The notes beneath the pieces were generated by a model. That model saw nothing but the letters and a program-made list of their open reading frames with translations. It had not been told where the DNA came from and made no database searches. From positions 22,552 to 86,551 of the forward strand of contig JAKAKW010000002.1 of NCBI GenBank assembly GCA_021824345.1: a DNA stretch of 64,000 nt. The letters run 5' to 3'. The DNA is from a bacterium (GTDB lineage Bacteria > Patescibacteriota > Minisyncoccia > Phycocordibacterales > UBA9973). The position numbers were made by a program, and so were the translations under genes. This document shows, piece after piece, positions 1,337 through 18,485 of the stretch (position 1 is the first letter of the stretch; each line of letters starts with the position of its first letter).

Positions 1337-1366
1337 CGTTTTTCTGTCTTGCCAATGGCTATTGCC

Positions 1367-1425
1367 TTGCATTTCGGTTTTTGTTCGGTATAATAGGATT
1401 ATATACCTAATATTTTTTATCGCAA
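1367..1425. promoter_or_regulatory. Overlapping divergent sigma70 promoters with a TTCGG-N6-TTCGG direct repeat (candidate LexA operator)
   Basis: + strand TTGCAT(1367)-16-TATAAT(1389); - strand TTGCGA(1425-1420)-16-TATAAT(1403-1398); TTCGG at 1373 and 1384 in the + promoter spacer. Confidence 0.55.
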
Positions 1426-1426
1426 T

Positions 1427-3010
1427 ATGGAAACGTTAACAAAAAAGCAGAAGCAGGTTCTTGATTTCATAAACGCATACAGGGCGGAGAACGGCATTTC
1501 GCCCACGATCGAGGAAATAAGAAAAGGCCTGAAGCTGAAGGCGGTTTCTACCGTGCACGAGCACGTGAATGCCTTGAAGGAGAAAGGATACATATCCGGC
1601 GAGGAAAATTCTGCAAGAAGCCTTGTTCCTAAAAAGGCGATAAAGACGATAGTTGAAATCCCCATAGTGGGAAGAATAGCCGCGGGCGACCCTATTGAGG
1701 CTATTGAAGACTTTCAGGACACTGTTTCCATATCCGATCCTTCAATAAAAAGCCACAAAGATTATTACGCCTTGAAAGTGGCAGGCGATAGCATGATAGA
1801 AGAGGGAATATTCGACGGAGATATAGTGGTGATAAAAAAGCAGTCTTCGGCGGAAAACGGGCAGACGGTTGTTGCTATCATTGATGATGAAAAAGCCACC
1901 TTGAAGAAGCTATACAGGGAAAAAGACCGATTCAGGCTGCAGCCGGCAAATTCAAGGATGAAGCCTCTTTTTAGGACGGAAGTAGAGGTAAGGGGAGTTG
2001 TGGCGCAAATAATCAGAAACTTGGCTAATGCGCAAAATACCGCAGAGGAGAAAAAGGTGACAACAAGCAAATTCAGGACAATTGATTTATTCGCGGGGAT
2101 AGGAGGAATAAGGATAGGGTTCGAGAAGGCAGGGTTTAATACCGTCTTTGCAAACGATTTCGATGAACAGTGCAAGAAAACCTATGATTTGAATTTTCCT
2201 ACTTCTAAATTGGTGGTGGAAGACATAAGAAAACTAGGAATAGAGGATCTACCTGATTTTGATTTTCTCTTGGGCGGGTTTCCTTGCCAGGCCTTTTCCA
2301 TAGCGGGGTATAGGCAGGGCTTCAAGGATGAAAAGGGAAGAGGAAACTTGTTTTTTGATATTGCCAGGATAATTGAAGCGCGGAAGCCTGAAGGGTTCCT
2401 GTTGGAAAACGTTAAGAATCTTAAAAGCCACGACAATGGCAAGACTTTCAGAGTGATAGAAAAAACCTTGAAAGAATTGGGATATCACATACAAACAAAA
2501 GTTTTGAATACCATGGACTACGGCAATGTTCCGCAGAATAGGGAAAGGATATACATAGTCGGGTTCAAGGATAAAAATCGCGCGGATAGGTTTTCCTTCC
2601 CCGAGCCCGTAAAGCTTAGGAGGAAAGTCACCCATTTATTGGATAAGAAAGTTCCAGAAAAATATTACTATAACGGCAAGCCTCTTTATGAAAAGCTCAA
2701 GCATTTTGTAAAAGAAGAGGGAAAAGTATATCAGTGGAGGCGCCAGTATGTGAGAGAAAATAAGAGCGGAGTATGTCCGACCTTGACGGCGAATATGGGA
2801 ATGGGGGGGCATAATGTGCCCATTATCAAAGACAAGAAAGGAATACGGAAGCTTACTCCCCGGGAGTGCGCCCGCATACAGGGATTCTCCGATGATTACA
2901 AGCTTCCCGAAATTGCGGATTCCGCGCTATATAAGCAATTAGGGAATTCTGTCAGCGTGCCTGTTATAGAAGCAGTAGCCAAGCAGATGAAGAAAGTTCT
3001 AAACGGCTAA
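1427..3010 (+). CDS. LexA repressor fused to a DNA (cytosine-5)-methyltransferase
   Basis: N-half: wHTH (LTKKQKQVLDFI..SPTIEEI), cleavage site RIAAG, catalytic GDSM and ATLKK. C-half: C5-MTase motifs DLFAGIGG, GGFPCQ, ENVKNL, PQNRERIY, YKQLGNSV. One continuous ORF. Confidence 0.93.
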   Translation: METLTKKQKQVLDFINAYRAENGISPTIEEIRKGLKLKAVSTVHEHVNALKEKGYISGEENSARSLVPKKAIKTIVEIPIVGRIAAGDPIEAIEDFQDTVSISDPSIKSHKDYYALKVAGDSMIEEGIFDGDIVVIKKQSSAENGQTVVAIIDDEKATLKKLYREKDRFRLQPANSRMKPLFRTEVEVRGVVAQIIRNLANAQNTAEEKKVTTSKFRTIDLFAGIGGIRIGFEKAGFNTVFANDFDEQCKKTYDLNFPTSKLVVEDIRKLGIEDLPDFDFLLGGFPCQAFSIAGYRQGFKDEKGRGNLFFDIARIIEARKPEGFLLENVKNLKSHDNGKTFRVIEKTLKELGYHIQTKVLNTMDYGNVPQNRERIYIVGFKDKNRADRFSFPEPVKLRRKVTHLLDKKVPEKYYYNGKPLYEKLKHFVKEEGKVYQWRRQYVRENKSGVCPTLTANMGMGGHNVPIIKDKKGIRKLTPRECARIQGFSDDYKLPEIADSALYKQLGNSVSVPVIEAVAKQMKKVLNG

Positions 3011-3945
3011 GCCTTTCATTTTTTTGAACAGGTTTTCCATATCCTTTAAATCATCCCAATATACGAACATGTTATCATTATTAAAAGACATGCCTTTAAA
3101 GTTTTTACCCGCGGCTAGTTCCTGAAAATCATTCCTAGAGGCCCAGCCCCTTCTTTCAACTCGTATGCCGTTAAGAGCCGGAAAATCAGAAAATATTTCT
3201 TCTCCCCGGCCTCCCAAGCTCCTGAAAAATCTCTGCCCGGTGCTGGATTTTTTCCAATGCACTTTATAGCCTATGAATAATCCCGCTTGCCTGTCTCCCT
3301 CGAATTCATTTTTTGAAATCAGCATGAAATACTGCACGTCTTTTACCTGTATCTTGGTTTTTGGGGCAAAATAAGAACCTCCGGAAAACTTTATTTTCTT
3401 TACATCCTGCCCCTCATCTGTGTTTGAGGTTCCGATATAAAAATCCCTGTTCAGTTCTATACCTATACCATGTTTCTCGCAGTCCATCTTAAAGGCCACT
3501 TCATTTAAAAGGCCTTTAGTAATATCCATCATGGCCTCTATATCATATCTTGTTTTTCCGCTTGAATACAATGTAATAAAATTTTCATTTACCGCTTTCT
3601 TTGCCCAATTAAATTCCCCTATAATGCTTCCAGGGGGATTAAAATAGAGTTATCAAGGACAGATTGGCAATATTCCGAAATTTTTTTAAAACTAGTAAAT
3701 CCGTTTTTAATCGATCCGTTTCCCTGTGCGAGATTCTCAATCTTATTTGAGGAATTGGCTGATCCGCCTGCTACTCTCCTAAATTGGCCCAAGGATACGC
3801 TTTCATATCCGTAAGGTCCAAGTATTTCATTTACAATTTCAAATACTCTAGGCAGGGCGTTTTCTTCTTCAAAGAAAATGTTTGTGTCTTCCTTTATGCC
3901 CCGGTTTGCTATGTTATCAGGGATTTTTATTTTCTCATTATTCAT
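2999..3945 (-). pseudogene. Putative restriction endonuclease split by a 1-nt frameshift in a C5 run
   Basis: Upstream frame (ATG 3945, MNNEKIKIP) stops at 3619; downstream frame is open 3649-2999; one extra C in CCCCC (3633-3637) joins them (SILIPPGSIIGEF); C-part has DEGQD...KIQVK nuclease-like motif; convergent with the MTase. Confidence 0.55.
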
Positions 3946-3946
3946 T

Positions 3947-4043
3947 TGTCCCCGGGCCAGGAGATTATTATAACTATCCTGTCGGACGGGGAATATATGG
4001 GGAGTTTGCATAACAAGCTCCTTTTTATCAGGGAAATGAGATA
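3947..4043. repeat. Junction repeat copy R1
   Basis: TGTCC-ccgggcca-GGAGATTATTATAACtATCCtgtcGGAcGGGGAATATATGGGGAG...GGAAATGAGATA; matches the copies at 6345, 7332 and 8254. Confidence 0.9.
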
Positions 4044-4110
4044 GGATAGGGGCGCTTTTAATTATTGTTTTAATTATTGCGGTTCCAAGGCATTGAACCA
4101 TTACGATACC

Positions 4111-4139
4111 TTGACATATAGCATAAAATGCTGTATTAT
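4111..4139 (+). promoter_or_regulatory. Near-consensus sigma70 promoter for the REC/radical SAM unit
   Basis: TTGACA(4111)-17 nt-TATTAT(4134). Confidence 0.7.
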
Positions 4140-4178
4140 ATTTATAATTTCTGATCGTTGACAATCATCTCTTGTCTC

Positions 4179-4236
4179 GATTTGTTGATTAGTTTTTGTC
4201 TCCTTCTTAAAGGAGGTAGAAACTAATTAACAAATC
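4179..4236 (+). other. 27-bp RNA hairpin in the 5' leader
   Basis: GATTTGTTGATTAGTTTTTGTCTCCTT / AAGGAGGTAGAAACTAATTAACAAATC; all four non-Watson-Crick pairs are G-U. Confidence 0.75.
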
Positions 4237-4264
4237 TAAACAATCAATATAGGAGAAAATCTAA

Positions 4265-5056
4265 ATGGAAAAAAATATCAAAGTGTTCGCTTTAGGAAGC
4301 GAAAATGATACTGTATTACTTGCCTTGAAACAGGCACTTTCTATAACCGGCATAACTTTCATTAAGGACGTTGTAGAATCCGATCTAGTGGTTTCAACAT
4401 CAATTCACGACGTTGGCAGGATATATAATCCTGAGAAAAACTACGCTGTTGTCTCGATGGGGGAAAAGAAAACTGCTACATTACCTCGTAATGTAGAAAT
4501 TTTCAACGGCCCGCCTAATCTTCTTGAAATTCTGAAATATATTTCTTCAATTGAGGTCTCTCAAGAAGAAGAAATACAAAAAGCAGAATTACTTCCTGAT
4601 GCAAAAAAGATTCTTGTTGTTGACGATACTCTTAGGCATCGAAATAGCGCAAAGGATCTATTAAAAGGTCATATTTTGACAATAGTTGATGGATACGAAC
4701 TGGCGCTTGACGCTCTTTCGTCGCAGAAGTTTGATGTCGTTCTTACAGATCTTAAACTTCCCATGAGCTCTTCCATACTTTCCCCGAACGTATTTAAATG
4801 GGGTGAGCTGGAAAATTATGGAGTGTTTATCATGTTAGAGGCTGCAAGGGTTGGTGTAAAGCACATAGCAATTGTCACTGACCTAAATCATCATCTTGAT
4901 CCTTTTTCCGCCGCTTTTGATCACTTTTCTCAGTATTTGTTTAATATTAACGGCTCGGATGCAGTCATGATTCATGCCAACTTGGTTGATAACAAAAAAG
5001 GAGAGACGGTAAAAGATTGGGGAGAAGCACTATCACGGGTTATGTCTGCTGAATAA
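4265..5056 (+). CDS. Protein with C-terminal atypical response-regulator receiver domain
   Basis: KKILVVDD, FDVVLTDLKLP, IAIVT; unknown ~105-aa N-domain; AGGAG RBS. Confidence 0.7.
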   Translation: MEKNIKVFALGSENDTVLLALKQALSITGITFIKDVVESDLVVSTSIHDVGRIYNPEKNYAVVSMGEKKTATLPRNVEIFNGPPNLLEILKYISSIEVSQEEEIQKAELLPDAKKILVVDDTLRHRNSAKDLLKGHILTIVDGYELALDALSSQKFDVVLTDLKLPMSSSILSPNVFKWGELENYGVFIMLEAARVGVKHIAIVTDLNHHLDPFSAAFDHFSQYLFNINGSDAVMIHANLVDNKKGETVKDWGEALSRVMSAE

Positions 5057-5093
5057 AGTGACTTGTTAAATAACTATTTTAGGAGGAACAGAC

Positions 5094-6221
5094 GTGAAAA
5101 GACAACTCAAAAAATTCCAACTAGAAGGTTTTCCATCCAAGAAAGAAATCATTAAAGCAGAAAAAGAAATCTTTCCATTAGTCTTATCTCCTTCCGTGAG
5201 TGCGCTCTGTAATCTGAGGTGTATATACTGTTATACTCGTGCTGGAAAAAAATTACCCGGAGAATTAGATTTTGCAGATCATGCGAAAGCAATCAATGAA
5301 TTTACTGAGCTTAATAGGCACAACAAATACATGATTATTGCAATGATGGGGGAAACTTTTTTGGATAAAAGTCTTTATAATGTAAAGGGAAAAAATATTG
5401 TTGATCCTATTACAAAAAAGAACTTTGTATCCAAGTTTCCCATTATAGATTATGCAAATAGATGCGGTATCAAGGTGGTCTTTTTCACAAACACTACCGT
5501 AATAAATAAAAAGATAGCCGAAGAACTAAAGGGTAAAAATGTTTCCATCATAGGTAAACTTAACACACTCAATCCTAAATTACAGGAAGAAATGACGGGC
5601 GGAAAAGGATTCTTTGTTGAAGAAGAATGGGTAGACTACGAATATTTGGTTGGAGGCAAGAAAAAAAAGATAAAAATCCCGAAAGGTCTTAATGCTTTGA
5701 TTGAAGCAGGATTTAACAAAATCAACGAAAGAGGCAATACAAGTTTAGGAGTTGATATAATCCTTACTGAAAAAAATTACAAGGATGTTCCTAAGGTTGT
5801 AGAATTTTGTCTAGAGAATTTTATTCATCCTGTTTTAGATACAATGCTTCCTATAGGATCAGCGGCAGAAAATTATTTTGAGCTGAAACTAAAAACGGAA
5901 ACAAACAGATGGCTATACAAAAGATTGCTTCAGCTGCTAGGTTCAAATTTTGCCGAGGCGGAATTTACCGGCAATCCATGTTCAACTTTTCGCGCCGGCA
6001 TTGCCTATGATAATTTCGGTAATGTGCGAATGTGTTGCGGAGGTGAAGCTGACGGTATAGGCAATATCAAAAGGGATAGCCTTAAGGATATTTATCAAAA
6101 AATGATTAGATACAAGGGGAATTTCCTGTCTAATTTAAGAGAAAATAAACTTGGCAATGACGTATTTCCTGAATGTCCAGTAGCAAATTATTTTCGAAAA
6201 GAATTAGAGAAAAGTATCTAA
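5094..6221 (+). CDS. Radical SAM protein with C-terminal SPASM/twitch-like cysteines
   Basis: CNLRCIYC motif; C-terminal C..G...GNVRMCC...IGNI...CP; AGGAGG RBS before GTG. Confidence 0.88.
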   Translation: MKRQLKKFQLEGFPSKKEIIKAEKEIFPLVLSPSVSALCNLRCIYCYTRAGKKLPGELDFADHAKAINEFTELNRHNKYMIIAMMGETFLDKSLYNVKGKNIVDPITKKNFVSKFPIIDYANRCGIKVVFFTNTTVINKKIAEELKGKNVSIIGKLNTLNPKLQEEMTGGKGFFVEEEWVDYEYLVGGKKKKIKIPKGLNALIEAGFNKINERGNTSLGVDIILTEKNYKDVPKVVEFCLENFIHPVLDTMLPIGSAAENYFELKLKTETNRWLYKRLLQLLGSNFAEAEFTGNPCSTFRAGIAYDNFGNVRMCCGGEADGIGNIKRDSLKDIYQKMIRYKGNFLSNLRENKLGNDVFPECPVANYFRKELEKSI

Positions 6222-6238
6222 TTATATTAACTTCTTGA

Positions 6239-6270
6239 AGGCCGGACTGGTAAACAGTCTGGCCTTTTAT
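6239..6270 (+). terminator. Intrinsic terminator
   Basis: GGCCGGACTG-gtaaa-CAGTCTGGCC followed by TTTTAT, just after the radical SAM stop. Confidence 0.75.
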
Positions 6271-6288
6271 ATATCTTATCTTGGAGGC

Positions 6289-6439
6289 GGTTCGATTCCT
6301 GTCTGGTCAAAACCCCTTGCTATTGTTAGCTTAGAGAAAATCCGTGTCCCCGGCTCAGGAGATTATTATAACCATCCTATCGGATGGGGAATATATGGGA
6401 AGTTTGTATAATAAACTGTTGTTAATAAAGGAAATGACA
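6289..6439. repeat. Junction repeat copy R2 (core from 6345) with ~55-bp left flank shared with R3
   Basis: TCGATtCCtGTCTGGTCA...TTGTTAGCTTAGAGAAAATCCG-TGTCC-ccggctca-GGAGATTATTATAACCATCCtatcGGATGGGGAATATATGGG. Confidence 0.9.
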
Positions 6440-6494
6440 GCAATCTGAAAAAGATTAGTCTAAGGCTGTAAGATAGCTGTATAATAATAGAGAG

Positions 6495-7277
6495 ATGAAA
6501 ACAGCAATGCCACAAAAAGTAAAAAAAGTACTTGAAGAACTTTCAAATTTTTTTCAAGAAGTTCTAGGGAGAAATTTGGTTGGAATATATTTACACGGCT
6601 CATTAGCTATGGGGTGTTTTAATCCGGCTTCAAGCGATATAGATATTATTGCAGTTATAAAAGGCAAATTATCTTTACAGGCGAAGAATAAATTGCAGGC
6701 CGGAATTAGATTATCATCAAAAAAGTATCCACAGAACGAGTTTGAGATAAGCGTAGTGAAACAAGATGTATTGCGTAAGTTTAAATATCCTACGCCTTTT
6801 GAATTTCATTTTTCAAAATCATCTAAAAATGTAAGTGCCAAAAACAATACGGGTTACGATAATGACTTGGTTGCCCATTTTGCCATGGTTAAAAAGAGAG
6901 GACTCTGTTTATATGGAAAACCAATTAGGTCAATTTTTCCCAACATACCCAAAAAGTATTTTCTTAAGTCTATAGCGCAGGATGCCAAATGGAGTGCGGA
7001 AAATGTGCGCAAGGCAAAAGAGAAAGGAAAATGTCCTGTACCGACTTATGCCGTATTGAACTTTTGCCGGGCCATTGCTTTCATCAGAAGTAATGAGTTC
7101 TTTTCAAAGAAGGAAGGCGGTGAATGGGGTCTAAAGCATCTACCGAAGAAATATGCGCCAATAATAAAAGAGGCGTTAAAAAAATACAGGAAAAGAAATT
7201 CCGCAAAGACGGTTGATTCCGAACTATTGAAACAGTTTAGCGAATATTCTTGGAATGTAATAAAGAAATATTACTAG
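6495..7277 (+). CDS. Aminoglycoside adenylyltransferase-like nucleotidyltransferase (AadA/ANT-like, DUF4111-type C-terminus)
   Basis: LVGIYLHGSLAMG..NPASSDIDI polymerase-beta NTase motif; D.DL.AH, YAVLNFCR, SKKEGGEW. Confidence 0.8.
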   Translation: MKTAMPQKVKKVLEELSNFFQEVLGRNLVGIYLHGSLAMGCFNPASSDIDIIAVIKGKLSLQAKNKLQAGIRLSSKKYPQNEFEISVVKQDVLRKFKYPTPFEFHFSKSSKNVSAKNNTGYDNDLVAHFAMVKKRGLCLYGKPIRSIFPNIPKKYFLKSIAQDAKWSAENVRKAKEKGKCPVPTYAVLNFCRAIAFIRSNEFFSKKEGGEWGLKHLPKKYAPIIKEALKKYRKRNSAKTVDSELLKQFSEYSWNVIKKYY

Positions 7278-7278
7278 C

Positions 7279-7415
7279 TCGATCCCGGTCTGGTCAGAAT
7301 ACCTTGCCATTGTTAGCTTAGAGAAAATCCGTGTCCCGGCGGGAGGAGTTTATTATAACCATCCTTTCGGATGGGGAATATATGGGGAACTTATATAATA
7401 AATTGTTGTTTATAA
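7279..7415. repeat. Junction repeat copy R3 (core from 7332)
   Basis: TCGATCCCGGTCTGGTCAGAATACCTT...TTAGCTTAGAGAAAATCCG-TGTCC-cggcggga-GGAGtTTATTATAACCATCCtttcGGATGGGGAATATATGGGG. Confidence 0.9.
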
Positions 7416-7452
7416 ATTCCCTGAAAAATTCTTAAATGGTTTTTAGTAAAAA

Positions 7453-8091
7453 CTATTTGCCTAATTCTTGAGCTGATTTAGCAACTTCATCGTTGAACAT
7501 TCCTTGAATACCTGCTACGTATTTGTTCGCTTCTTCACCCGTAACCTCGGTTGATTCACCTGTGGCAAAATTTACCGCCTTAACAACATACCCGTTATTT
7601 TCGGCAGAAATGTCGTAAATAAATACATTCTCCGGGTCAAGGTCAGCCTCGACTTTCGCATTTTCTTGTAATTTGTCCAATGGTGTGAATGCGTCCATTT
7701 CATTAAAAGCTGATTTCTCACCTTTTATACCCGAGGTTTTATTCAAAACCATTCTGTCAGCTGAGCCATCAAGATTGTTATCGATAAGTAGTCGCCCTCC
7801 ATTCTTTTCTTCACTCATCATCCATTTTGCCTTTCCATTTTCATCATAACCCACGATTAATTTCTGACCATCGGGCGATACCCATTTCTCTACTTTTGTA
7901 TTTCCAATATTGCCTTTCTGGCCTTTCTCTGATATTTGCAAAACAATCTTTTGCTCATTCTGTTTAGCCAGAGCTTTTAGGTCATCTATGTTTTTTCCTC
8001 CTTTTTCTAAAGCTTGGGCAAACCCGGGAAGATTCATAAGTACGGACAATGCTACTACTTTTGATACAGTCTTTATCTTTTCAAAATTCAT
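7453..8091 (-). CDS. Hypothetical secreted protein
   Basis: 212 aa; signal peptide-like N-terminus ending AQA; DNNLDGSAD motif resembling a Ca-binding loop. Confidence 0.75.
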   Translation of the reverse strand: MNFEKIKTVSKVVALSVLMNLPGFAQALEKGGKNIDDLKALAKQNEQKIVLQISEKGQKGNIGNTKVEKWVSPDGQKLIVGYDENGKAKWMMSEEKNGGRLLIDNNLDGSADRMVLNKTSGIKGEKSAFNEMDAFTPLDKLQENAKVEADLDPENVFIYDISAENNGYVVKAVNFATGESTEVTGEEANKYVAGIQGMFNDEVAKSAQELGK

Positions 8092-8253
8092 AATATTTGC
8101 TAGTTATTCTTAAATTAAGATATGGTGATTGCGACGTTTTATTTATACAATTTTTTTGTAAATGATACAAGATAGCCAAGTGACTAGGACACTTCTAGTT
8201 ATAAGTACCATCTCCTAACGACAAAAGAGCCTTAGTTTATAAGGACGAAAATT

Positions 8254-8350
8254 TGTCCGCGGTCCAGGAGATTATTATAACCATTCTTTCGGATGGGGAA
8301 TATATGGGGAGCTTGTATAACAAGCTTCTTTTTATTAAGGAAATGAGATA
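8254..8350. repeat. Junction repeat copy R4
   Basis: TGTCC-gcggtcca-GGAGATTATTATAACCATtCtttcGGATGGGGAATATATGGGGAGCTTGTATAACAAGCTT...GGAAATGAGATA. Confidence 0.9.
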
Positions 8351-8379
8351 AAATAAAATATTTTAATTTCCAAGAACCT

Positions 8380-9468
8380 TCATACTGCTTGTTGGCTACC
8401 TTTTATTTTTTCAAACAAAGACCGTAGAAAGTTTAAATACATTTCTAATAATTTTTTATGAATATATTGAAAATCTTCTTTCAAATAAGATTCTGATAAT
8501 TTATTCTCCTTTAATACTTTTGAAAGTTTTTCCTCTGACTGAGGATGTGCGGCAATCCTTATTACTATATTATTCAAGGTCCTTAGCCCGTATAAATCTT
8601 CTCCCACCTTTATTTTTTTGGATAGAAGGTATAGATGCAATAAATTTATACTTCCAGAAAGTTCATTTAACCCATTTATTTCTTTTCTTGCCTGATCTAA
8701 AGAAAATCCATGTTTTGAGAGATCCTCAGCATTTAGATCCTGGATGAACACTCTCAAATCCATGCAACGCCCCATTAATTCTGCTAATTTAGTCGGGCCC
8801 TCAATCTGCGAAATTATTCGTTCAGAGTCTGGAAATAAAGTAAATTTAAATCGATTATCTTCCACAGCTAACAAATTTATTTTTTTTCTTAATTCTGAAA
8901 TCTCTTTTACAATTTCAGTATTGTTGTATTTTTTTTCCTGTTCTTCTTCTTTCTCAATTTCTTTTCTCTTTATATTTTTTGAATTATTCTCTATAAGTTC
9001 TTGCGCACGATCAGAACCTTCCTTTGAAATTTTCTCTTTAATTTTTTCTATATTAGAGCCTTTCCATTTTAAAATTTCTTTTACGAATATAATCTCTGAG
9101 CTTTTACCCTTTATACTTTCGAAATTTTTTGAATAATATTCAAGCTGGTCTTTTGGATTTTCTCTAAGAAGATATTGTAACGATAGAACTCTTATGTCGC
9201 GTCTTACATTTTCGTTTTCAAATATTTCCTTCAAAAGAAAAACAATTTTGTTTAAGGATTTTGTTCTTAACATATATCCTAACAATGTGGTAATAATAGA
9301 TTCATTGGGGTCTGACGAATTCAATTCTTTTAGAGTCAAAGTGAATACTCTATCTGAAATGAAGTGTTCTTCCAAATTGTTTTCATTTAGAAACTCCACA
9401 GCATAAGAAAAATTAATGTCCCTTGTCTCTTGTTTTGAAAGGATTTCGCGGAAAGCCAAGCAGAGCAA
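8380..9468 (-). CDS. Hypothetical helical protein, probably N-terminally truncated
   Basis: 362-aa AT-rich ORF; TTG start directly after an in-frame TGA, no RBS; no recognisable motif. Confidence 0.55.
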   Translation of the reverse strand: MLCLAFREILSKQETRDINFSYAVEFLNENNLEEHFISDRVFTLTLKELNSSDPNESIITTLLGYMLRTKSLNKIVFLLKEIFENENVRRDIRVLSLQYLLRENPKDQLEYYSKNFESIKGKSSEIIFVKEILKWKGSNIEKIKEKISKEGSDRAQELIENNSKNIKRKEIEKEEEQEKKYNNTEIVKEISELRKKINLLAVEDNRFKFTLFPDSERIISQIEGPTKLAELMGRCMDLRVFIQDLNAEDLSKHGFSLDQARKEINGLNELSGSINLLHLYLLSKKIKVGEDLYGLRTLNNIVIRIAAHPQSEEKLSKVLKENKLSESYLKEDFQYIHKKLLEMYLNFLRSLFEKIKGSQQAV

Positions 9469-9623
9469 TCAAAGTACGAGGTCAGCTGCGGCATCGCAAC
9501 CCCCAACCTGACTCAAGCGGAGAAGAAAGTTGAGAATTCTAGCCAATAAAATTGTAATTACCTACGCAATTTCAAAAAGGGAATACCAATCTAATAATAT
9601 TGATTCAAGACAATCACAAAACT

Positions 9624-11255
9624 TTATTCCATGATTTGGCCATCCCCGTCGTCAAGTTTGAATAAAAATTTCTGATTTTTTTTATCGAATGTAACGACCG
9701 GAAGGAGAACTTCCTCGAAGGTTGTTTTTTTATCTGCCATGAGTTCCCCGCTCAAAATTTTTGGTTTTATATCCTTGTAAAGAAATTCGATCATCTTTTT
9801 TCTTTCCTTACCTACTATACTTACTTCAGTCCCGTTAACCTTAAATCCAATGATATACAAATATACCTTCAAGACTGAAGGGAAAAATCCTTTTACATTA
9901 GACATAAAATCACCATTTATTTTTTCCCAGATTAGACCTATGATGGTTTCTGATAGTTTTTCAAATCCAGAAGTAAGGGAATGGAGTGGAATCGTCTCTC
10001 CCACAGTTTCCATTGCTAATATTCTTATTTTCCCATTGTATTCTTCCTTTACCTGGGCTAGGGATTCAATAAAACCACAAACAGTTTTTGCATAGGCAAA
10101 ATTTATGCTTGAACGGAATTCGTTGTCTTTTTTAACTTCCGTTTCATATATAGAGGCCTGTTTCCTCTTTAATGCTTCTTTATATTCTCGTATATAAGTA
10201 TGACCAAGAAAAAAACTTATTGTCTGGAGCCGAGATACAGCTTCTTTATGTTTGTTTTTTTCTTTACTTGAAAAAGCAAGTGACTGCGAGTAATCATTTA
10301 GTTTATCCAGTCCATTACAGATCTCTCTTCTCATTTCTACTGGACAATTATTTTCCCAATATCCTTTGATAGCATATTCTAAAGATTTTAAATAAACTGC
10401 CAAATATTTTTCATGTAGTCTGTCAAATTTACAGAAACTATAATCATTTCCGAATACACAAAAATTGTCTAGAAAATATGGTTCTGAAAATATTGCCTCA
10501 AAGGCATTAAGGGCTAGGGAAGTACCCCTATAATCAAGTTGACTATAAAAATATGAACTCTCTTCTCTAAACAATAATTCGATAATTCTGTCTAGTCCTA
10601 ATTGAGTATGGGCAGATGTGATTCTATATTTCTTGAATGTAGCTAGCAAATATAAAATAAAATCTATCCTCCCGGTTGCAATATATCTTGCTACTCTCTC
10701 TTCGCTTAAAATTACAGTTGTGACGGCATTGGCATAAATAGCATATTTTTCCTCATCGGAAAGGATATAATCCTTATCTCTTTGAAAAGGTATTGAGCTG
10801 ATACCAGCCAGTGCCTTCGTTATATTTTCAAGGTTGGCTCCCAGAATATCAATACAGACATCGATGTTATCAATTTTAGGTTTAGTTATTTCTCGTAGAA
10901 TAATGTTATAAAACTTTTCTGCACGCCTCTTGTTGAATAGCCCCTTCTTTCTTTTTCCGAAAAGTAGCAAACTTAATGGGGCAAAAATAAAACATAAGTA
11001 TCCTAAGAACTGCCAAAGAAATGTATTGTTCAAAAAAGAAAGGGGTAAACTAAAGAATTTTTGTTGGATAGTGATAGCAATGGCTATAGATACAAGCCCC
11101 CCAACACCCATGTACCATATTAAGTTTCTTTGCCATGAATCTCTAATTTTCAAAACAATGTCCCAAGATTTGTCTTTGAGTTGAAATACGGCAAAAATTA
11201 AACCGAAGGCGGCTACGGCCTCACCTAAAGAAAAATGTATTATGTTATCTGCCAT
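9624..11255 (-). CDS. Hypothetical protein with three N-terminal TM helices and a large soluble domain
   Basis: 543 aa; hydrophobic segments in the first ~100 aa; directly downstream of hsdR. Confidence 0.75.
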   Translation of the reverse strand: MADNIIHFSLGEAVAAFGLIFAVFQLKDKSWDIVLKIRDSWQRNLIWYMGVGGLVSIAIAITIQQKFFSLPLSFLNNTFLWQFLGYLCFIFAPLSLLLFGKRKKGLFNKRRAEKFYNIILREITKPKIDNIDVCIDILGANLENITKALAGISSIPFQRDKDYILSDEEKYAIYANAVTTVILSEERVARYIATGRIDFILYLLATFKKYRITSAHTQLGLDRIIELLFREESSYFYSQLDYRGTSLALNAFEAIFSEPYFLDNFCVFGNDYSFCKFDRLHEKYLAVYLKSLEYAIKGYWENNCPVEMRREICNGLDKLNDYSQSLAFSSKEKNKHKEAVSRLQTISFFLGHTYIREYKEALKRKQASIYETEVKKDNEFRSSINFAYAKTVCGFIESLAQVKEEYNGKIRILAMETVGETIPLHSLTSGFEKLSETIIGLIWEKINGDFMSNVKGFFPSVLKVYLYIIGFKVNGTEVSIVGKERKKMIEFLYKDIKPKILSGELMADKKTTFEEVLLPVVTFDKKNQKFLFKLDDGDGQIME

Positions 11256-11298
11256 TTCTTATAATAAACTCAACTAGAAATATCCTAATAACGAAATG

Positions 11299-13755
11299 TT
11301 AATTCACTAAAGCATATACCTTTTCTTTTAAACCCAGCACGAACCCGAAAAGCCCTCCGGGGTACTTGGCCTGGATGGCTTCCTTTTTTGCGTTCATATT
11401 AGGCAATAGGAATGCTTGCGACGATAGATTTTCCTCACCACTGGTTTTGTACTTCTCCATAATGTCACGAATGGCTTCGCCGATTTCCTTGCCATATTGG
11501 TCAAGTGTTTGAGTATTTGCGCGCATGAATTGTTTAACTCGGTCCTCACGAGTCAGAAGGGGAGCGTCAAATGCTATATGCGCTATAACGTCGAAAGCGT
11601 CACTATCCTCTAAGTTCTCTATGGATTTGATTAGTGGAATGTTCACGTGTTTAGTTTCTAGGTCGGTTATGAGTAGTTCGCGTTTCTCTGGGTCAAGCCA
11701 TATTTTACGGAGTTCATCAGTGGTGTGTACCATTTCGGTTATCCTTTCACCGGAATACTTGCGATACTCTGCTTTTGAGAGCTTGATGCCGTCGAATTCT
11801 ATCTCAACCTCCTCATCAATACTCACCTCAATGCCTTTGACTATAATTTTCTTAGGAGTACCCTTGAGCGGCTTCAGGCGGAATTCATAGGGTGTTTCTG
11901 CTTCTGATTCATGCGGTTCAAGACGCTTGCTCAAATTTTTGTAATCGGCGTGCTCAATTTGTACAGACACTTCACCATTTGTCGGCAAACCGAATATCCT
12001 AAATAGACCGTCGTTGTCGGTTTTACCGATCTTCTCCCAGCGCCCGAGCTTAACTTTCACCACAGCGCTTGCCACATGCTCTTCTGTCTTGTTATTGACC
12101 ACTACACCTGTGATTAGTTTATCAAAAGGCGGTATCGGTTCTTCTGGGGTCGTAGGAGGCACTGGCGGTTGAGGAGCTACGTCCCACTCGTCCAGGAGCC
12201 GGGTAGCGTTTGTAAAATCAATAACGCGGAAGAAACCCTTACCTTCAGAAAGACGAGAACCTCGTCCTAATATCTGTTTAAACAGCACCCGTGAAGCTAT
12301 AGGACGCATAAAGACGATATTTTGTACGTGGGGGATGTCTACCCCAGTAGAAAGCAAATCTACTGTTGTTGCAACGACTGGTAAGGTACGTTCTTTGTCT
12401 CGAAAGGCAGTTAAGTCATCTTTGTCCTCAGCTACAATACGGGTAGCGTAGTCCTCGCGTCCCTTTAGTTCGTTTAATTTATCTTGTACCGCCTGTGCGT
12501 GTGCCATATCAACACAGAAAACGATAGTTTTTCCATAAGGGTTTGTTTCGTCAATCAGCTCAACCACCTTTTTTGCCAGCAGACCTATTTGCTCGGGAAT
12601 AGTGACGGCGCGTTCGTATTCTGATGGTTCGTAGAAATCTTTAATATCTTCTGGTTCAACTTCATCGTCGTATATAATTTCTTCTGCTGCGGCGACGGAG
12701 AGCCCTTTACGGTACAGATTCGTAGTGACCTTGTAGATTTTGTACGGTACGAGATAGCCGTCTTCAATAGCTTGCCCTAGGGAATACTGGAATACCGGTT
12801 CACCGAAGTATTCGTATACGTCAATATTGTCTTCCCGGCGTGGAGTTGCTGTCATGCCGAAGTGTACAGCAGAAGTGAAGTGATCAAGAATTTCTCCCCA
12901 GTCACCAAATCGCGAGCGGTGACATTCATCAATGACAATCAGATCAAAAAAGTCAGCTGGTATCTGCTTGTAGAGATCATTCGCGAAGAGCGTCTGGTAT
13001 GTTGAGAAATAAACGTCCCGGTTGCGATTGAAGTCACCACCTTCTATCTTTGCGCGGCCTTCGCCAAATGGTTCAAAATCTCGGCTATAGGCATCATCGC
13101 GCAGAATTATACGGTCACAAAGAAAAAGGATACGATGCATCGTTTTTGATTTCATCAATTTCCAAACAATTTGAAAGGCAGTGAATGTTTTACCAGTGCC
13201 GGTGGCCATTGTAAGAAGTGTTGTACGATTTCCTTTGATAATGTTTCTAACTACTGCATTGATCGCGGTTTCTTGATATGAACGCGGGCGCTTGGTACCA
13301 CTAATGTGAAGCGGATATTCGAGTGCAGACAACTTAGCATTTTCTAACCCTTTCCATTCTATGTATGCTTTATACATATCTTCAGGCGATAGGAAAGAAG
13401 AAACTGACTCTGGCGCTTTATTTGTGCGCCGATCATATAGGTATGAGGACTTGCCGTTAGATATATAGGCAAATGGTACGTCAAGACGCTCAGCATAATT
13501 TTGCACCTGTTTAATATGTTTCATCAAGTCCTCGTCCTCTGCTTTTGCTTCAAGCACTGCTACTGTAACTTGGTTGAACTGGACCACATAATCAGCAAAG
13601 AGCGAAGTCGGAAGACGTTTATATTCTTCTCCTTCAACGTAAAAACGATCGTCAGAAATAGGGTAGTTGCGAAGAATATATTCCTCTTTCCACCCTGCCT
13701 CGTGTATTTTGGGATCTATTATTTTGACTCTTGTGTCGTCCTCTGAAAAGGTCAT
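11299..13755 (-). CDS. hsdR: Type I restriction enzyme R subunit (EcoEI/EcoAI-like) with an inserted Ig-like domain
   Basis: SEDDTRVKIIDP, ADY...LEAK nuclease; MATGTGKT, DECH, GMTATP, LSTGVD, QILGRGSR helicase motifs; EcoEI-type C-terminus (DAFDVIAHIAFD..LTREDR). Confidence 0.92.
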   Translation of the reverse strand: MTFSEDDTRVKIIDPKIHEAGWKEEYILRNYPISDDRFYVEGEEYKRLPTSLFADYVVQFNQVTVAVLEAKAEDEDLMKHIKQVQNYAERLDVPFAYISNGKSSYLYDRRTNKAPESVSSFLSPEDMYKAYIEWKGLENAKLSALEYPLHISGTKRPRSYQETAINAVVRNIIKGNRTTLLTMATGTGKTFTAFQIVWKLMKSKTMHRILFLCDRIILRDDAYSRDFEPFGEGRAKIEGGDFNRNRDVYFSTYQTLFANDLYKQIPADFFDLIVIDECHRSRFGDWGEILDHFTSAVHFGMTATPRREDNIDVYEYFGEPVFQYSLGQAIEDGYLVPYKIYKVTTNLYRKGLSVAAAEEIIYDDEVEPEDIKDFYEPSEYERAVTIPEQIGLLAKKVVELIDETNPYGKTIVFCVDMAHAQAVQDKLNELKGREDYATRIVAEDKDDLTAFRDKERTLPVVATTVDLLSTGVDIPHVQNIVFMRPIASRVLFKQILGRGSRLSEGKGFFRVIDFTNATRLLDEWDVAPQPPVPPTTPEEPIPPFDKLITGVVVNNKTEEHVASAVVKVKLGRWEKIGKTDNDGLFRIFGLPTNGEVSVQIEHADYKNLSKRLEPHESEAETPYEFRLKPLKGTPKKIIVKGIEVSIDEEVEIEFDGIKLSKAEYRKYSGERITEMVHTTDELRKIWLDPEKRELLITDLETKHVNIPLIKSIENLEDSDAFDVIAHIAFDAPLLTREDRVKQFMRANTQTLDQYGKEIGEAIRDIMEKYKTSGEENLSSQAFLLPNMNAKKEAIQAKYPGGLFGFVLGLKEKVYALVN

Positions 13756-13775
13756 ATTTTTATAAATTGCTATTT

Positions 13776-14456
13776 CTATCCTTCGCTTGGTTTTTTCTTT
13801 GATTCAGCGAGTGCTTTTAATTTTTCTGAACGAGTGCGCCGGTTTTCTCGATCAACATACCAGTCATCCACTAATTGTTCAATTAGGCCAATTAGAAGCT
13901 GGGCTTCTTCTGGCTCAACTTCAATGATGACGTTTATATCTTTTTCCATGTGTGCTCCAATATTCCCTACGCTTCTCACAGCATCAATACTAGTCCATGT
14001 GTCCGGATCAACTTTTTCTTCCAGAGCGTCAATCTCATCTTTCAAACGTGCCATTTTAATGTTCCAGAAGTCGCGTATCATCCCCTGGAGACATCGTCGT
14101 GCAAGCGTAGCCGATGCCTTTGGGCTTAGATCACGTATACGGCACGCTTCGTAGTAATTTTCTTGTATAGGTTTCGGTATATACTCTGGAAGTACTTTTG
14201 CCTCTGACTCCGGGAGTAAGCGCCACGTCTTTAGAGCTGCAGATTTTTTCCATTCACCATATTGCCAATAGGTACCGGTAAGCTCTGCAACAAGTGTTAG
14301 CTGTTGGCATTCTTTGTTAGGGCAAGTGACAGCAGAAATTCCGAAGCCAATATCCCCAAGGGTAGGTTTGGATATATTAATCTTATACCACATCGAATCT
14401 CGATTGGGATCAGTGATTGTTGTATGTCTTCCGCAAAATGGGCAAGTGTAGTTCAT
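13776..14456 (-). CDS. DUF4145 (HEPN-like) protein with N-terminal Zn ribbon
   Basis: CPFC...CPNKEC; SPKASATLARRCLQGMIRDFW; R..GN..AH (RSVGNIGAH). Confidence 0.8.
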   Translation of the reverse strand: MNYTCPFCGRHTTITDPNRDSMWYKINISKPTLGDIGFGISAVTCPNKECQQLTLVAELTGTYWQYGEWKKSAALKTWRLLPESEAKVLPEYIPKPIQENYYEACRIRDLSPKASATLARRCLQGMIRDFWNIKMARLKDEIDALEEKVDPDTWTSIDAVRSVGNIGAHMEKDINVIIEVEPEEAQLLIGLIEQLVDDWYVDRENRRTRSEKLKALAESKKKPSEG

Positions 14457-14467
14457 GAATAAATTTA

Positions 14468-16735
14468 TTATTTAATAAATGCTTGGCCTAGCACTGATGG
14501 ACGAAACCTAGCAAAATACTTTGCTTGTTTTGAAAACAATTCCCCTAACTCCTTGGACATGTCAAACATCTTGTCCAGAGTGTTTGCAATATACTTTTGT
14601 TTTTCAACGTCAAGTTTTCCATCCTTAAATGGAATTGGTATCTCAACTTTTCCAAGATTAGTGCGGCTAATTCTCTTTCGTGAAGAACCTGTGACCATTT
14701 GGTATACCTGAGATCGTGCATCATCTGAGTTTAGGAAGTAGTTAATGTAACGTGGGTCATAATCTTGTCCCAAGCGGACGATAGTACAATCAACCGCTGT
14801 GAGCATACGATGCCCTGTTTTTGGTACGATACATGATCGTCCGACCGGGTCAGGGAGTCGAGATACAAGAATATCTCCAGGCAAAATCTCTGTACAGTGT
14901 AAGCGCTGAAAAGTTTGCTCATTTACAAAACGCTTAGTTTCCTTATCTCGAAAGTCAATCACTCCTATGTTTCCGGTCTGTACCAGCCAATACCCTTGAG
15001 AAGATTGATCTTTACTCTCAATCCAGTTGCCGTCGTTGAAGAATGTACAAATGTCTGCAAGTGCAAAGCGTTCAACATCAGTATTGGAAAATGTTCTTTC
15101 TAATTCACTCTTAAGTGATGCTAATATTAATTTAATTTCTTTCTGCTTATCCTCTATTTTTATAATGATTTCAGCAGGCGGTAAGAGTACTTCATTCTCA
15201 ACACTACTAGGGTTCTTGGGTGAAATATCCCAGCCGTGCTCCTTTATGGTATCCACTGAAACGATCCACGATGTGTTAGATACCTCGCGACGTTTCCATT
15301 TCTCGAATATATCTTGTAAGTGCTCATCCTGTACCGTCTTCTTTTTCGTAAATTTACCTTGTACTTCGCCGTACCATATTTCCTTTGTCGCGCCTGTTTT
15401 CTCAAAGAAGACAAGGTTCGTTTTTACGCCCGCGCCCATCTGTGAGAATGTACCTTGCGGAAGTGAAATTATAGCGGAAACATTGAATTTTGTTAGAAGT
15501 TCTTCACGAATACGAGCCGTTGCGCCACCTCCGAACATAATGTTTCCTTCAGGTAAAATAATGCCACAGCGCCCTCCATTTTTAAGGCGTTTCATCACAT
15601 ATTGCAACGCAAGACCTTCAGTTGCCCCTATTTGGATAGGATAGTTGTTTTGTACTGCTTTTGATTCTTCCGCACCGAACGGTGGATTGGTAAGAATTAC
15701 ATCAACTTTCTCGCTTTCCGGCATATTATGCACGTCTTCCATGAATGTGTTGGTGCGTGTAAGGTTTGGAACGAGTATGTGATGGAGAATAAGGTTCATC
15801 GTACCTATGAGAAACGGTAGCGGTTTCTTTTCCTGCCCATATAGGGTGGAAGTTTGGAGAGTATTCCATGCACGCACGTCTTTCGCAGAGTTCTCGAACA
15901 TGTGGTTAAAACTCTCAACGAGGAAACCGCCAGAGCCAACAAATGGGTCCAGAACTGTTTCGCCTAACTTTGGGTTGACGATGCTTACCATAAGGCGTAT
16001 AAGCGGTCTTGGACTATAAAACTCTCCGGACCAGCCGCCCTCGCTACCCATCGCCTGCAGTATTTCTTCGTATACCTGTGAGAGCAGGTTTGTGTCTTGA
16101 AAATGATGCTTCTCTATTTTATCTAGCACATCGATAACATCCAACAAGTTGTGAGCAGAACGGACACGATTGCCCGGCAGTTCGCGAAAAATCTCTCCGA
16201 TTTTATCTCGGCGTGGATCTCCTTTCAGTGCTTGAAGATAAGGGAAGAGTTTTTGGTTTACAAAATGCATTAATTCATCCTTATCTTTCCAATCTTTCTT
16301 CGCCCATGCTGACCACTGGTACTCTGCATCGATGACCGGCTTGTACTTACGGCCTTCTGCCTCCTCGAGTTCTTTTAGTTGCGTCTCAACGCCTTCAAAT
16401 ATTTTTAGGAAGAGGATCCACGAGAACTGCTCGATATAATCCTTTGCCCCTACACCATCGTCACGACGAAGAATATCGCAAACATGCTTAATGTCCGCCT
16501 TTGTTAAACTCTCACGTTTAGAAACCATTTCTTTCTCTACTTTATGCGCCATCTCTGGGATTTTACCTTCAACGAATGTTTTTAGATCGCTTGTGGAAAT
16601 GCGCCATGTCCCCCCTACCTTCTTCGCAGATAGTTTTTTATTGTGAATGTAACGGAAAGCAGTCCGCTCACTCACGTGGAGCATATCTGCAACTTCTTCC
16701 AAGGTATAAAGGCGATCAGATGTATCTTTTGTCAT
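14468..16735 (-). CDS. hsdM: HTH (excisionase-like)-HsdM N6-adenine methyltransferase-single-TRD HsdS fusion
   Basis: N-term YTLEEVADMLHVSERT..GGTWRI; GEFYSPR, DPFVGSGGF, NPPF; one C-terminal TRD (GDILVSR..GRSC..IPIP..Q..IA); start moved to ATG 16735. Confidence 0.88.
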   Translation of the reverse strand: MTKDTSDRLYTLEEVADMLHVSERTAFRYIHNKKLSAKKVGGTWRISTSDLKTFVEGKIPEMAHKVEKEMVSKRESLTKADIKHVCDILRRDDGVGAKDYIEQFSWILFLKIFEGVETQLKELEEAEGRKYKPVIDAEYQWSAWAKKDWKDKDELMHFVNQKLFPYLQALKGDPRRDKIGEIFRELPGNRVRSAHNLLDVIDVLDKIEKHHFQDTNLLSQVYEEILQAMGSEGGWSGEFYSPRPLIRLMVSIVNPKLGETVLDPFVGSGGFLVESFNHMFENSAKDVRAWNTLQTSTLYGQEKKPLPFLIGTMNLILHHILVPNLTRTNTFMEDVHNMPESEKVDVILTNPPFGAEESKAVQNNYPIQIGATEGLALQYVMKRLKNGGRCGIILPEGNIMFGGGATARIREELLTKFNVSAIISLPQGTFSQMGAGVKTNLVFFEKTGATKEIWYGEVQGKFTKKKTVQDEHLQDIFEKWKRREVSNTSWIVSVDTIKEHGWDISPKNPSSVENEVLLPPAEIIIKIEDKQKEIKLILASLKSELERTFSNTDVERFALADICTFFNDGNWIESKDQSSQGYWLVQTGNIGVIDFRDKETKRFVNEQTFQRLHCTEILPGDILVSRLPDPVGRSCIVPKTGHRMLTAVDCTIVRLGQDYDPRYINYFLNSDDARSQVYQMVTGSSRKRISRTNLGKVEIPIPFKDGKLDVEKQKYIANTLDKMFDMSKELGELFSKQAKYFARFRPSVLGQAFIK

Positions 16736-16742
16736 GCTGGGT

Positions 16743-16812
16743 ATGATAGTCCAAGATAAATATTTTGTCAAGTTTTGGCAAGTATTGTAATACACTTGCC
16801 ATTTTATGACAA
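16743..16812 (-). promoter_or_regulatory. Leaderless promoter with overlapping inverted-repeat operator
   Basis: TTGACA(16771-16766)-17-TATCAT(16748-16743), 7 nt before ATG; IR TTGTCA-N5-TGGCAAGT-N10-ACTTGCCA-N5-TGACAA (16765-16812). Confidence 0.7.
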
Positions 16813-16851
16813 CTTTATATTTGACATGTTCCCGTCTTTTTATTTTCTAGA

Positions 16852-17245
16852 TCTCCCGCGCGCGTAGGAAAAATCCGATTTTATCCCAGTACTATTTTTG
16901 CTTTTCTACTTTGTTACTACTAGCTATTTCTTCATTTTACCCCTATTCGGATTGAATTTTGGTTTTCGGGCAGTTTTTTCAGGTAACCCGGGGGTATTTT
17001 TTCTTGCCCTGACAGCTCTAAGACGTTCCCGGCATTCCCTGAGTTTTTATTTTCCCTCACGCGCGCGAGAAAATCCAAATCTATCACAGTCATATTTTCA
17101 GGATTTTTCTTTGTTATCATTAGGTATTTTCCCATTCTACCCCAATTGTGATTGGCAGTGCCGTTTTTTGTCTCTTTTTGGACGAAATCTTTTTTAGTTG
17201 AGTTATAATTTATAGATCACCTCGCGCGCCCGCGTGCGTAGAATA
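16852..17245. repeat. Three imperfect direct repeats built on CGCGCGCG in a non-coding spacer
   Basis: CTCCCGCGCGCGTAGGAAAAATCC..ATCCCAGT (16852), CTCACGCGCGCGAGAAAATCC..ATCACAGT (17056), CTCGCGCGCCCGCGTG (17221). Confidence 0.6.
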
Positions 17246-17333
17246 GAAATTTATGAAAGAGCTATTTTTGTGTTTTACGTTGTAATTACTAGATATTTCT
17301 CGTTTTTTGCCTATTTCAATTGAATTCTTGCAA

Positions 17334-18281
17334 TTAAAGAGCATAACCAGGAGTTTTTGCGTAGGCCAACTGCCTCGTTCCGCCGTCCGCGAGCTCGTTC
17401 AGGGGGTGCTTGGTCATCTGCGATCGCAGGTGCTCCGCGCTGGCTGCCAGGTATATCGTGGTGGTCTTTATGTCGCTATGTCCCATCATTTTGGATAGGG
17501 AATAGATGTCGCACCCGCCCTCAAGCATCAGGGTTGCGAAAGTATGTCTCAGCTTGTGGACCGTAAACCTTATCTTCGATACCTCCCGTATTCTGTCTGT
17601 CAACACTTTCAGCCCGGAGTCTGTGAATCCCATGTTGCATCTGGATGACACGAAGAATTCCGGGCACGTTCTCCCTAGTTTTTTCCTTTCTTCCAGGTAT
17701 CTTTTCAGCGTCTGCGCCAGCGTGTAGCTCATCGGTATTATCCTATCCTTACTCCCTTTCCCTTGCCTTACGAAAATGGTCAGGTTTTCCAGGTCCACGT
17801 CCGTAAATTTAAGGTTTAGAAGCTCTTGTTTGCGCAGGCCGGCGAAGATGAAGGTAGAAAAGATCGCATGGTTGCGATAGCGCAGAAACTTTGTCCCATA
17901 AGGATAATTGTAAACAACCTCCAACAGCCGGAGCGCGTCCTGTTTGGTCAGCTTCGGCGGGAGCTTCTTCTCCAGCTTTGGCTTTTCAATGTCTATCACC
18001 GGATTCTTTTCCATGTAGCCCTGCTTTATGCACCAGCGGAAGAATACCAGCAGGGTTTTGTGGTAAATGATGAACGTATTTGTGGACCAGCTGCGCTGGA
18101 TCCGTCCGTAATAGAACAGCTCTCGCACATTCTCGTCCGTGACCTGGCTGATTTCCTTTACGCCGGCGGATCGGCAGTAATAGTTTATGATGCTCTTGTA
18201 TCTTTTAATGGTGGCTTTTGAATAGCCGCGAATGGAATCTGAATAGTCGCAAAATCTTTGCGCTAAAATTTCCATGTCCAT
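17334..18281 (-). CDS. Tyrosine recombinase/integrase (XerC/D-like)
   Basis: GLRKQEL (R), GKGSKDR (K), HKLRH, MGHSDIKTTTIY; ~130 bp from the tRNA-Lys 3' end; no IntI-specific insertion seen. Confidence 0.93.
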   Translation of the reverse strand: MDMEILAQRFCDYSDSIRGYSKATIKRYKSIINYYCRSAGVKEISQVTDENVRELFYYGRIQRSWSTNTFIIYHKTLLVFFRWCIKQGYMEKNPVIDIEKPKLEKKLPPKLTKQDALRLLEVVYNYPYGTKFLRYRNHAIFSTFIFAGLRKQELLNLKFTDVDLENLTIFVRQGKGSKDRIIPMSYTLAQTLKRYLEERKKLGRTCPEFFVSSRCNMGFTDSGLKVLTDRIREVSKIRFTVHKLRHTFATLMLEGGCDIYSLSKMMGHSDIKTTTIYLAASAEHLRSQMTKHPLNELADGGTRQLAYAKTPGYAL

Positions 18282-18412
18282 ATGTTTGTTTGGCGTTCGG
18301 CGGAGCGTTTTATCCTGGAAAATTCTTTTTGGCCTCTCGACCTGTTTACTGCGGGAACTGGTCTAGGAAACAGCCCTATTTTCCAAAATACCCTTATTTA
18401 GCTTATATAATG

Positions 18413-18485
18413 TCCGCCCACTCGGGATCGAACCGAGGACCTTCTCCTTAAAAGGGAGCTGCTCTACCATCTGAGCTATGGGCGG
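18413..18485 (-). tRNA. tRNA-Lys(TTT)
   Basis: CCGCCCA-TAGCTCAGATGGTAGAGC-A-GCTCC CTTTTAA GGAGA-AGGTC-CTCGG TTCGATC CCGAG-TGGGCGG-A; CCA not encoded. Confidence 0.93.

Follow-up and report, generated by a model that had tools for sequence, protein, structure and literature searches.

Integrons are recognised by the integrase IntI with its specific insertion, by an attI site and by attC sites of the form RYYYAAC ... GTTRRRY. Cis-mobilizable elements (CIMEs), which carry no integration genes but retain their attachment (att) sites, accumulate at the 3′ end of a target gene, and an autonomous element next to them can carry them along (PMC5704250). In the Dehalococcoides ssrA islands, as described in PMC3146451, the large serine recombinase (LSR) gene dsiB overlaps attL at its 3′ end, the islands lie in tandem, 15 of them without the integration module, and the DsiB enzyme was suggested to be complete only on the circle or beside the 3′ gene fragment of an adjacent island. 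Prochlorococcus tycheposons use tyrosine recombinases in 910 of 937 cases and leave partial tRNA repeats, the island material being described as debris and flanking DNA and not as precisely bounded cassettes (10.1101/2020.12.28.424599). Described here is an array of small gene cassettes, separated by a repeat and ending at a tRNA-Lys gene, in a bacterial genome of 833 kb (G000), of which a 64,000-nucleotide stretch was analysed (the window, G000:C10:22552-86551). The repeats are severed LSR tails, and visiting LSR elements probably brought the eleven recombinase-less cassettes to the tRNA-Lys 3′ end in successive deliveries. The closest known systems are CIME accretion and the Dehalococcoides ssrA islands.

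A profile search of the whole genome recovered 11 copies of the repeat, all on one strand at C10 15,480-30,804 and each with E<=1.6e-27. None was detected outside this array of ∼15 kb across the 833 kb, the next match having E 0.02; the repeat is not scattered genome-wide. Four same-orientation copies had been claimed in the original prediction, with TGTCC cores at 3947, 6345, 7332 and 8254 of the window, and all four were found at those positions and with the same spacing (2398, 987 and 922 bp), but the count was too low, as seven further copies lie upstream of the window. The tRNA-Lys(TTT) to which the array had been said to be anchored was located at 18412-18485 on the minus strand. Units 1 to 11 measure 1607, 788, 1045, 1062, 511, 1331, 4673, 2398, 987, 922 and 10,157 bp. 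GC content is 0.375 in units 1-10 and 0.48-0.49 in the flanks. The cargo upstream of the window comprises a HAD hydrolase, a BrnT/CopG toxin-antitoxin pair, a NUDIX enzyme, a cytidine deaminase and an SDR protein; unit 5 has no open reading frame, and gene orientation is mixed among units. With 11 units this is the longest array among those examined, the others reaching 5.

Read in one frame, the repeat encodes a near-identical 30-residue peptide in all 11 copies. Pairwise differences among the copies numbered 154, 112 and 494 at codon positions 1, 2 and 3, and the ratio of non-synonymous to synonymous changes (pN/pS) over codons 11-29 was 0.07 in this frame; the other two forward frames gave 1.6 and 3.4 and the reverse frames 2.1, 0.28 and 3.3. 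A library protein (P0023) shares 65% identity with the LSR of locus L053 over residues 447-503 of the latter and then runs into the same peptide, and in L100, L107 and L091 LSR sequence enters it in frame. The L100 join is probably a tandem chimera because its enzyme comes from a more distant clade. The repeat is the cut-off C-terminus of an LSR (here called the stump), the gene being split by its own attP on insertion at a tRNA 3′ end, and by its codon statistics the stump reads as LSR coding sequence under strong purifying selection. An AlphaFold model of the L100 LSR plus stump had pLDDT (predicted local distance difference test) <50 for residues 453-521 and was uninformative on the tail. 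Purifying selection, together with the TTG or GTG that is frequent as first codon and often opens the frame, would also suit a repeat with a function in its own right, as an independent small protein gene or a structured RNA. That codon is merely the recombination core, however, and the frame continues LSR sequence; single-strand folding of the repeat core gave z-scores of only -1.0 to -2.0 and the tRNA was the sole Rfam match over the region, and this origin is extremely improbable.

The coding nature of the stump also bears on the junction pattern TGTCC-N8-GG, which had been described as a register common to repeats and tRNA with a different N8 at each junction. TGTCC is present in both, but the pattern alone occurs 188 times in the genome, and the N8 is the start of the coding stump and is the same in 6 of 11 copies. 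The statement that the sites are not attC was borne out, as 0 of 22 repeat-strand combinations matched the attC consensus given above.

Ten intact or near-intact LSR elements of 6-11 kb were found in relatives. Their order is stump, cargo (often restriction or other defence-type genes), reverse-strand membrane/packaging-like genes, replication gene and LSR, and AAA_25 or GP3_package genes are present in the intact elements. In 8 of the 10 the LSR frame terminates in sequence antisense to a tRNA 3′ end, the remaining two (L100, L182) being cut by the locus edge. In L093 and L101 intact LSR elements adjoin tRNA-Lys, and Pfam Resolvase, Recombinase and Zn ribbon domains were identified. TTATAA stands at -17 to -12 in 10 of 11 LSR-coded left arms, mirroring a TTATAA at +23 to +28 of the stumps, and the motif of the tRNA arm lies 5 bp nearer the core than that of the stumps. 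In the window this tRNA-side half-site occupies 18410-18434 (plus strand), with its TGTCC core at 18411 and its T-loop motif shifted as described. An offset between attP and attB motifs is known for LSR sites, and the 5-bp shift agrees with the account in PMC3783163. The binding motif would belong to the zinc-ribbon domain. Taken together, the mirrored motif and the tRNA offset place attP inside the LSR gene, so that the tail is left at the far end on integration. The recombination core is predicted to span ∼5 bp at the tRNA-Lys 3′ end, in keeping with the earlier proposal that small non-autonomous cassettes are stacked there with little core homology. Related LSRs, of 50-65% identity, target several tRNAs.

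The right ends of the cassettes are of a different kind. LSR 3′ coding sequence to the left of the junction was detected with a hidden Markov model at 0 of 43 internal, 4 of 39 tRNA and 2 of 100 outermost junctions; one short LSR-coded arm at an internal junction, in L107, was recognised by eye only. In G000, 8 of 10 internal junctions carry one of two common non-LSR arms of 55 bp, both attached to unrelated cargo: type A at three junctions, with 17 bp of it retained at a fourth, and type B at five. Type A begins with a mirror copy of a tRNA T-loop (6289-6343, plus strand, not LSR-coding), and the copy at 7276-7330 (plus strand) matches the two other full-length arms of this type at 88-90% identity. 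The mirrored T-loop motif was found in 41 of 137 arm clusters where 3.4 were expected, and behind only 1 of 44 G000 tRNAs. Helical phasing of the motif was considered and rejected (period 11, p ∼0.36, with no period prominent). Type B, seen in the window at 8198-8252 (plus strand), is 76-95% identical among its five copies and imperfectly mirrors the stump arm, with a terminator-like hairpin at the centre, although a shuffle test was passed by 1 of the 5 copies alone; the best alignment ended at -55 or -56 for four copies and at -53 for the fifth. Separately, hairpin mini-elements of ∼100-200 bp that mirror the host tRNA 3′ end were observed at cassette junctions, with or without a following stump (L124:1376-1578; L092:4398-4480; L143, L096, L077).

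An exact-pattern DNA scan of genome contigs gave nothing, the DNA being too diverged, and the peptide profile was used with success. The stump was detected in 25 of 211 other genomes of the genus, nearly always as a single copy. Twenty regions were examined, from 19 of the 25 genomes and from G100. The peptide faces a called tRNA 3′ end in 16 of them: 11 tRNA-Lys(TTT), 4 tRNA-His and 1 called tRNA-Ala (L053), whose real target is by eye an intron-split tRNA-Asn(GTT). One of the 25 genomes, which is also one of the tRNA-His cases, is unpublished (G059) and enters into none of the other results. Scans of public genomes and metagenomes yielded 128 stump loci, the titles in one scan naming mostly Patescibacteria groups. 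Removal of loci sharing a stump left 104, some arrays (e.g. L126) being replaced by longer overlapping loci. One stump is present in 86 of these, two in 12, three in 3, four in 1 and five in 2, always on one strand. Of the 104, 35 have a tRNA facing the last stump, Lys(TTT) in 25 cases; the other 69 have no called downstream tRNA, and many of them are short. Between last stump and tRNA-Lys, 22 of the 25 non-redundant loci contain no recombinase match, 2 an LSR and 1 a tyrosine integrase of the window type. Viral contigs contained no match to the stump and none to the LSR.

Recombinase-less cassettes with junction-exact ends move as units between distant hosts, since identity is 88-95% for the cassettes against 65-74% for the flanks of the hosts that share them. 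The cassette common to L090 and L092 is 94.5% identical over 1310 bp, with flanks at 70-73%, and that common to L089 and L085 is 88% identical over 1250 bp, with flanks at 65-74%; both matches begin at the junction. The L089/L085 cassette has the same right arm in three loci and a different next unit in each. The L090/L092 cassette has a complete LSR element and then the tRNA behind it in L090, and four more cassettes behind it in L092. Contigs of four DNA sets from one study, possibly the one from which this DNA came, break at repeats; three contig joints, with sides of 21-25 bp, showed no repeat-to-repeat joining and were uninformative on circles. The tRNA-Lys-plus-cassette block was also seen in opposite orientations relative to holA (uvrB where present) between genomes of the genus (L042, L043, L050 and L052 versus L047, L051 and L057).

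Alternatively, each unit could be what deletions have left, in place, of a complete LSR element of 6-11 kb, as in a classical CIME, the array being an immobile record of scars. In-place decay is the standard route in PMC5704250, and L091 and L107 retain ∼100 bp of LSR 3′ end. The restriction cargo of units 7 and 11 is homologous to that of LSR-type elements. Unit 7 (4673 bp in total, beginning upstream of the window, with its right part at 1-3945, no strand assigned) encodes Vsr and a LexA-C5 methyltransferase fusion, together with what is probably a restriction gene, broken into two pieces (2999-3571 and 3619-3945). Its methyltransferase is 77% identical to cargo of the intact L053 LSR element, and its right end is an ATG directly on the junction, without the conserved arm. 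The type I restriction-modification operon of unit 11, which with two genes without assigned function forms the cargo at 8380-16795 (minus strand), is 69-72% identical at the nucleotide level to cargo behind the L091 stump. Decay would also suit unit 5 with its missing reading frame. It does not fit the array in other respects: no remnant of LSR, primase or packaging gene was detected in the 11 units, the internal junctions end mostly in the two common non-LSR arms, with one partial arm besides, and cassette ends are identical across hosts with diverged flanks. Units 7 and 11 look more like decayed elements, and the decay account probably holds for these two and not for the array as a whole, for which it is improbable. 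As observations on unit 7 itself, the probable restriction gene at 2999-3945 is split over two reading frames, and homology between it and the L053 restriction gene was rejected.

The enzyme originally proposed to stack the cassettes was the tyrosine recombinase beside the tRNA (gene 17334-18281), with the repeat as its site. The protein matched TIGR02249 in two stretches at 111.9 bits against a cut-off of 265, is XerA-like by best match and has a spacing of ∼92 aa from catalytic R to HxxR; that it is not IntI was rightly stated. Gene and own conserved arm reach the tRNA (17334-18409, minus strand). At E<=1e-80, 6 of 400 genomes from the order have an ortholog, as do 9 of 211 from the genus. 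The 15 ortholog loci sit at tRNA-Thr, Lys, Ser, Glu or Ile, and none of them carries the stump repeat. All 7 loci of at least 18 kb have a conventional tRNA direct repeat of 26-68 bp, which in L219 comprises 43 bp of tRNA-Lys; the remaining 8 are short (<7.1 kb). Integrase (9 of 211) and stump repeat (25 of 211) coincide in the genus only in G242, on different contigs. The proposal could draw on the adjacency seen here and in L124 and L089, on the TGTCCGC common to repeat 11 and tRNA, and on the distal tRNA repeat of the integrase, which was not found in G000 or L124. Set against the ortholog loci, and against a repeat that is LSR coding sequence, it is highly improbable. By blastn, the likeness reported between tRNA-adjacent DNA and the left flanks of the second and third window repeats did not reach significance, and the repeat-free tyrosine-integrase elements L218 and L219 have conserved a similar flank. 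The tyrosine integrase is a separate conventional element and a bystander to the repeat array. Three CGCGCGCG-containing motifs lie downstream of it, at 16840-17240 of the window, and are possibly iterons or remains of the origin of the integrase element.

For the cassettes, delivery by a composite element with later re-excision of its LSR part is inferred. A circle composed of cassette and LSR element would integrate via the stump of the cassette, which on the circle would serve as the LSR tail. The LSR element would later excise at the internal junction, leaving cassette, arm and tRNA, and the arm-tRNA junction so left would be a regenerated attB for the next delivery. All steps would keep to attP x attB and attL x attR pairings, as is normal for LSRs; as recombination events they are predicted from sequence. 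Re-excision of the LSR element would explain why the array contains no LSR debris, why stumps are under selection and why growth occurs at the tRNA end, selection acting on every stump because any of them could become the enzyme tail on a circle. The composite in L090 would be the intermediate predicted by this model.

The same sites could instead be used by cassettes that excise and integrate as stand-alone circles, with an LSR supplied in trans from elsewhere in the cell. Movement with exact ends, the conserved 55-bp arms on unrelated cargo and the P-like motif in type B arms agree with such circles, and related LSRs with several tRNA targets could cross-act. They leave protein-level selection on the stump, beyond its role as a site, unexplained, because an LSR-free circle would not translate the tail; moreover, both junctions of an internal cassette have the same right arm, and pairs of this kind are described in PMC3783163 as not recombined. 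Movement by such circles is unlikely, if less so than decay of the whole array.

Several observations weigh against delivery by composite elements. None of 43 full-length clade members ends in the stump tail, the circular form being unseen as a whole protein; many end in tRNA antisense and several in different tails. G000 contains no LSR of the cognate clade, its three LSRs being 22-28% identical to it, and no LSR remnant was detected in the island. A single clear composite was seen (L090). The five type B arms bear a P-like TTATAA motif, and TTATAA occurs in 9 of 37 internal arms where 2.0 were expected, which fits a regenerated attB less well. Integrase orthologs, 74-76% identical, accompany stumps in L124 and L089, a co-occurrence that is explained more simply by one hotspot used by both than by a common mechanism. 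Delivery as proposed also gives no account of how the arms were at first joined to new cargo. With no clade LSR found, the array in G000 appears to be waiting or frozen, although the assembly may be incomplete. The three other LSR genes of G000 are at C8:14651-16468, C2:19447-21042 and C10:161880-163292; two of them run into antisense tRNA-Ser and tRNA-Glu, the same split-gene design with other tails. Among clade LSRs, P0074, P0078, P0089, P0091, P0098 and L182 end in other tail families with an 'RT' motif, which suggests that tails are interchangeable and that elements of different families have formed tandem junctions.

The remaining features of the window array agree with the cargo annotations made earlier. 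Repeat 8 of 11 (3946-4044, plus strand), the first in the window, comprises the LSR attP right arm and orphan LSR C-terminal codons, 32 aa followed by a stop. The cargo of unit 8 (4045-6288, plus strand) is a REC-like protein (4265-5056) and a radical SAM protein (5094-6221). The promoter and terminator ascribed to this unit have counterparts in a site resembling a promoter (4111-4139) and a hairpin resembling a terminator (6237-6267), but such sites are overall no more numerous than expected by chance. A near-perfect hairpin of ∼28 bp (4179-4239, -33.5 kcal/mol) lies between the unit 8 promoter and the REC start codon and may be an attenuator or structured leader. Repeat 9 (6344-6448, plus strand) carries the attP right arm and a stump of 34 aa and is followed by an AadA/ANT-like nucleotidyltransferase (6495-7277, plus strand) that scores under all NCBIfam cut-offs. 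Repeat 10 (7331-7435, plus strand; stump 34 aa) is the most diverged copy, and the cargo of unit 10 (7453-8091, minus strand) is a 212-aa protein with a signal-peptide-like start that belongs to no Pfam family. Repeat 11 (8253-8351, plus strand) again consists of attP right arm and LSR tail stump, of 32 aa. PADLOC returned weak matches only. Elsewhere in the window, a family of five paralogous genes was noted at 27496-29231 and 57353-63916, and a long gene with internal repeats of ∼255 bp at 33356-35988.

If delivery by LSR elements holds, the array would be an integron-like gene store built by a different enzyme class. More tentatively, bacteria of the candidate phyla radiation (CPR) may hold a serine-recombinase analogue of the integron, in which courier LSR elements leave precisely bounded cassettes at tRNA ends, the right arm rebuilds the landing site and the head is a spare recombinase C-terminus, so that the point of excision sets both cargo and enzyme tail. 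Genomes of <1 Mb would thereby be able to acquire genes of defence, metabolic and resistance-like type by small, ordered additions, with no need of an integron, and the 30-codon tail provides a simple marker for finding such arrays. The array also bears on how LSR elements stack although attL is no normal integration target, and on a possible control of direction by exchange of the C-terminus, an idea put forward for DsiB in 2011. No description of such CPR arrays was found in titles and abstract openings.

The likeness to tycheposons is the looser one: small integrative elements with replication/packaging genes and cargo, and islands that grow from the tRNA end. With integrons the array has in common a polar series of small unrelated cassettes that move as units, one kind of site, little core homology and a similar cargo (a toxin-antitoxin pair, NUDIX, deaminase, AadA-like and restriction genes). 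In contrast to integrons it has neither IntI nor attC, its genes face both ways, at least one unit has its own promoter-like site, and the serine recombinase is not encoded in the array. As in CIMEs, recombinase-less units accumulate at a target 3′ end, as the 22 of 25 tRNA-Lys loci lacking a recombinase match illustrate. As to the retention of both junctions seen in CIMEs, the left one has an intact stump in 10 of 11 units, but the right ends are mostly new non-LSR arms and not the original attL; as to mobilisation in cis, which would fit the L090 composite and the cross-host identity of cassettes, no circle was observed. The units differ from CIMEs in being of one- or two-gene size, mostly 0.5-2.5 kb and up to 11 in number, in the use of a serine recombinase with a core of ∼5 bp, in the conserved recombinase tail at their start and in ending in dedicated non-recombinase arms instead of a decayed attL. 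The Dehalococcoides islands resemble the array in the LSR gene overlapping an att site, in tandem islands and in islands without the module. There the target is tmRNA, cut in the T-loop with a 20-bp direct repeat, and the DsiB module has six genes (PMC3146451), whereas here the target is the 3′ terminus of tRNA-Lys or other tRNAs, with no long direct repeat and with different genes beside the LSR, and the orphan tail is under purifying selection.

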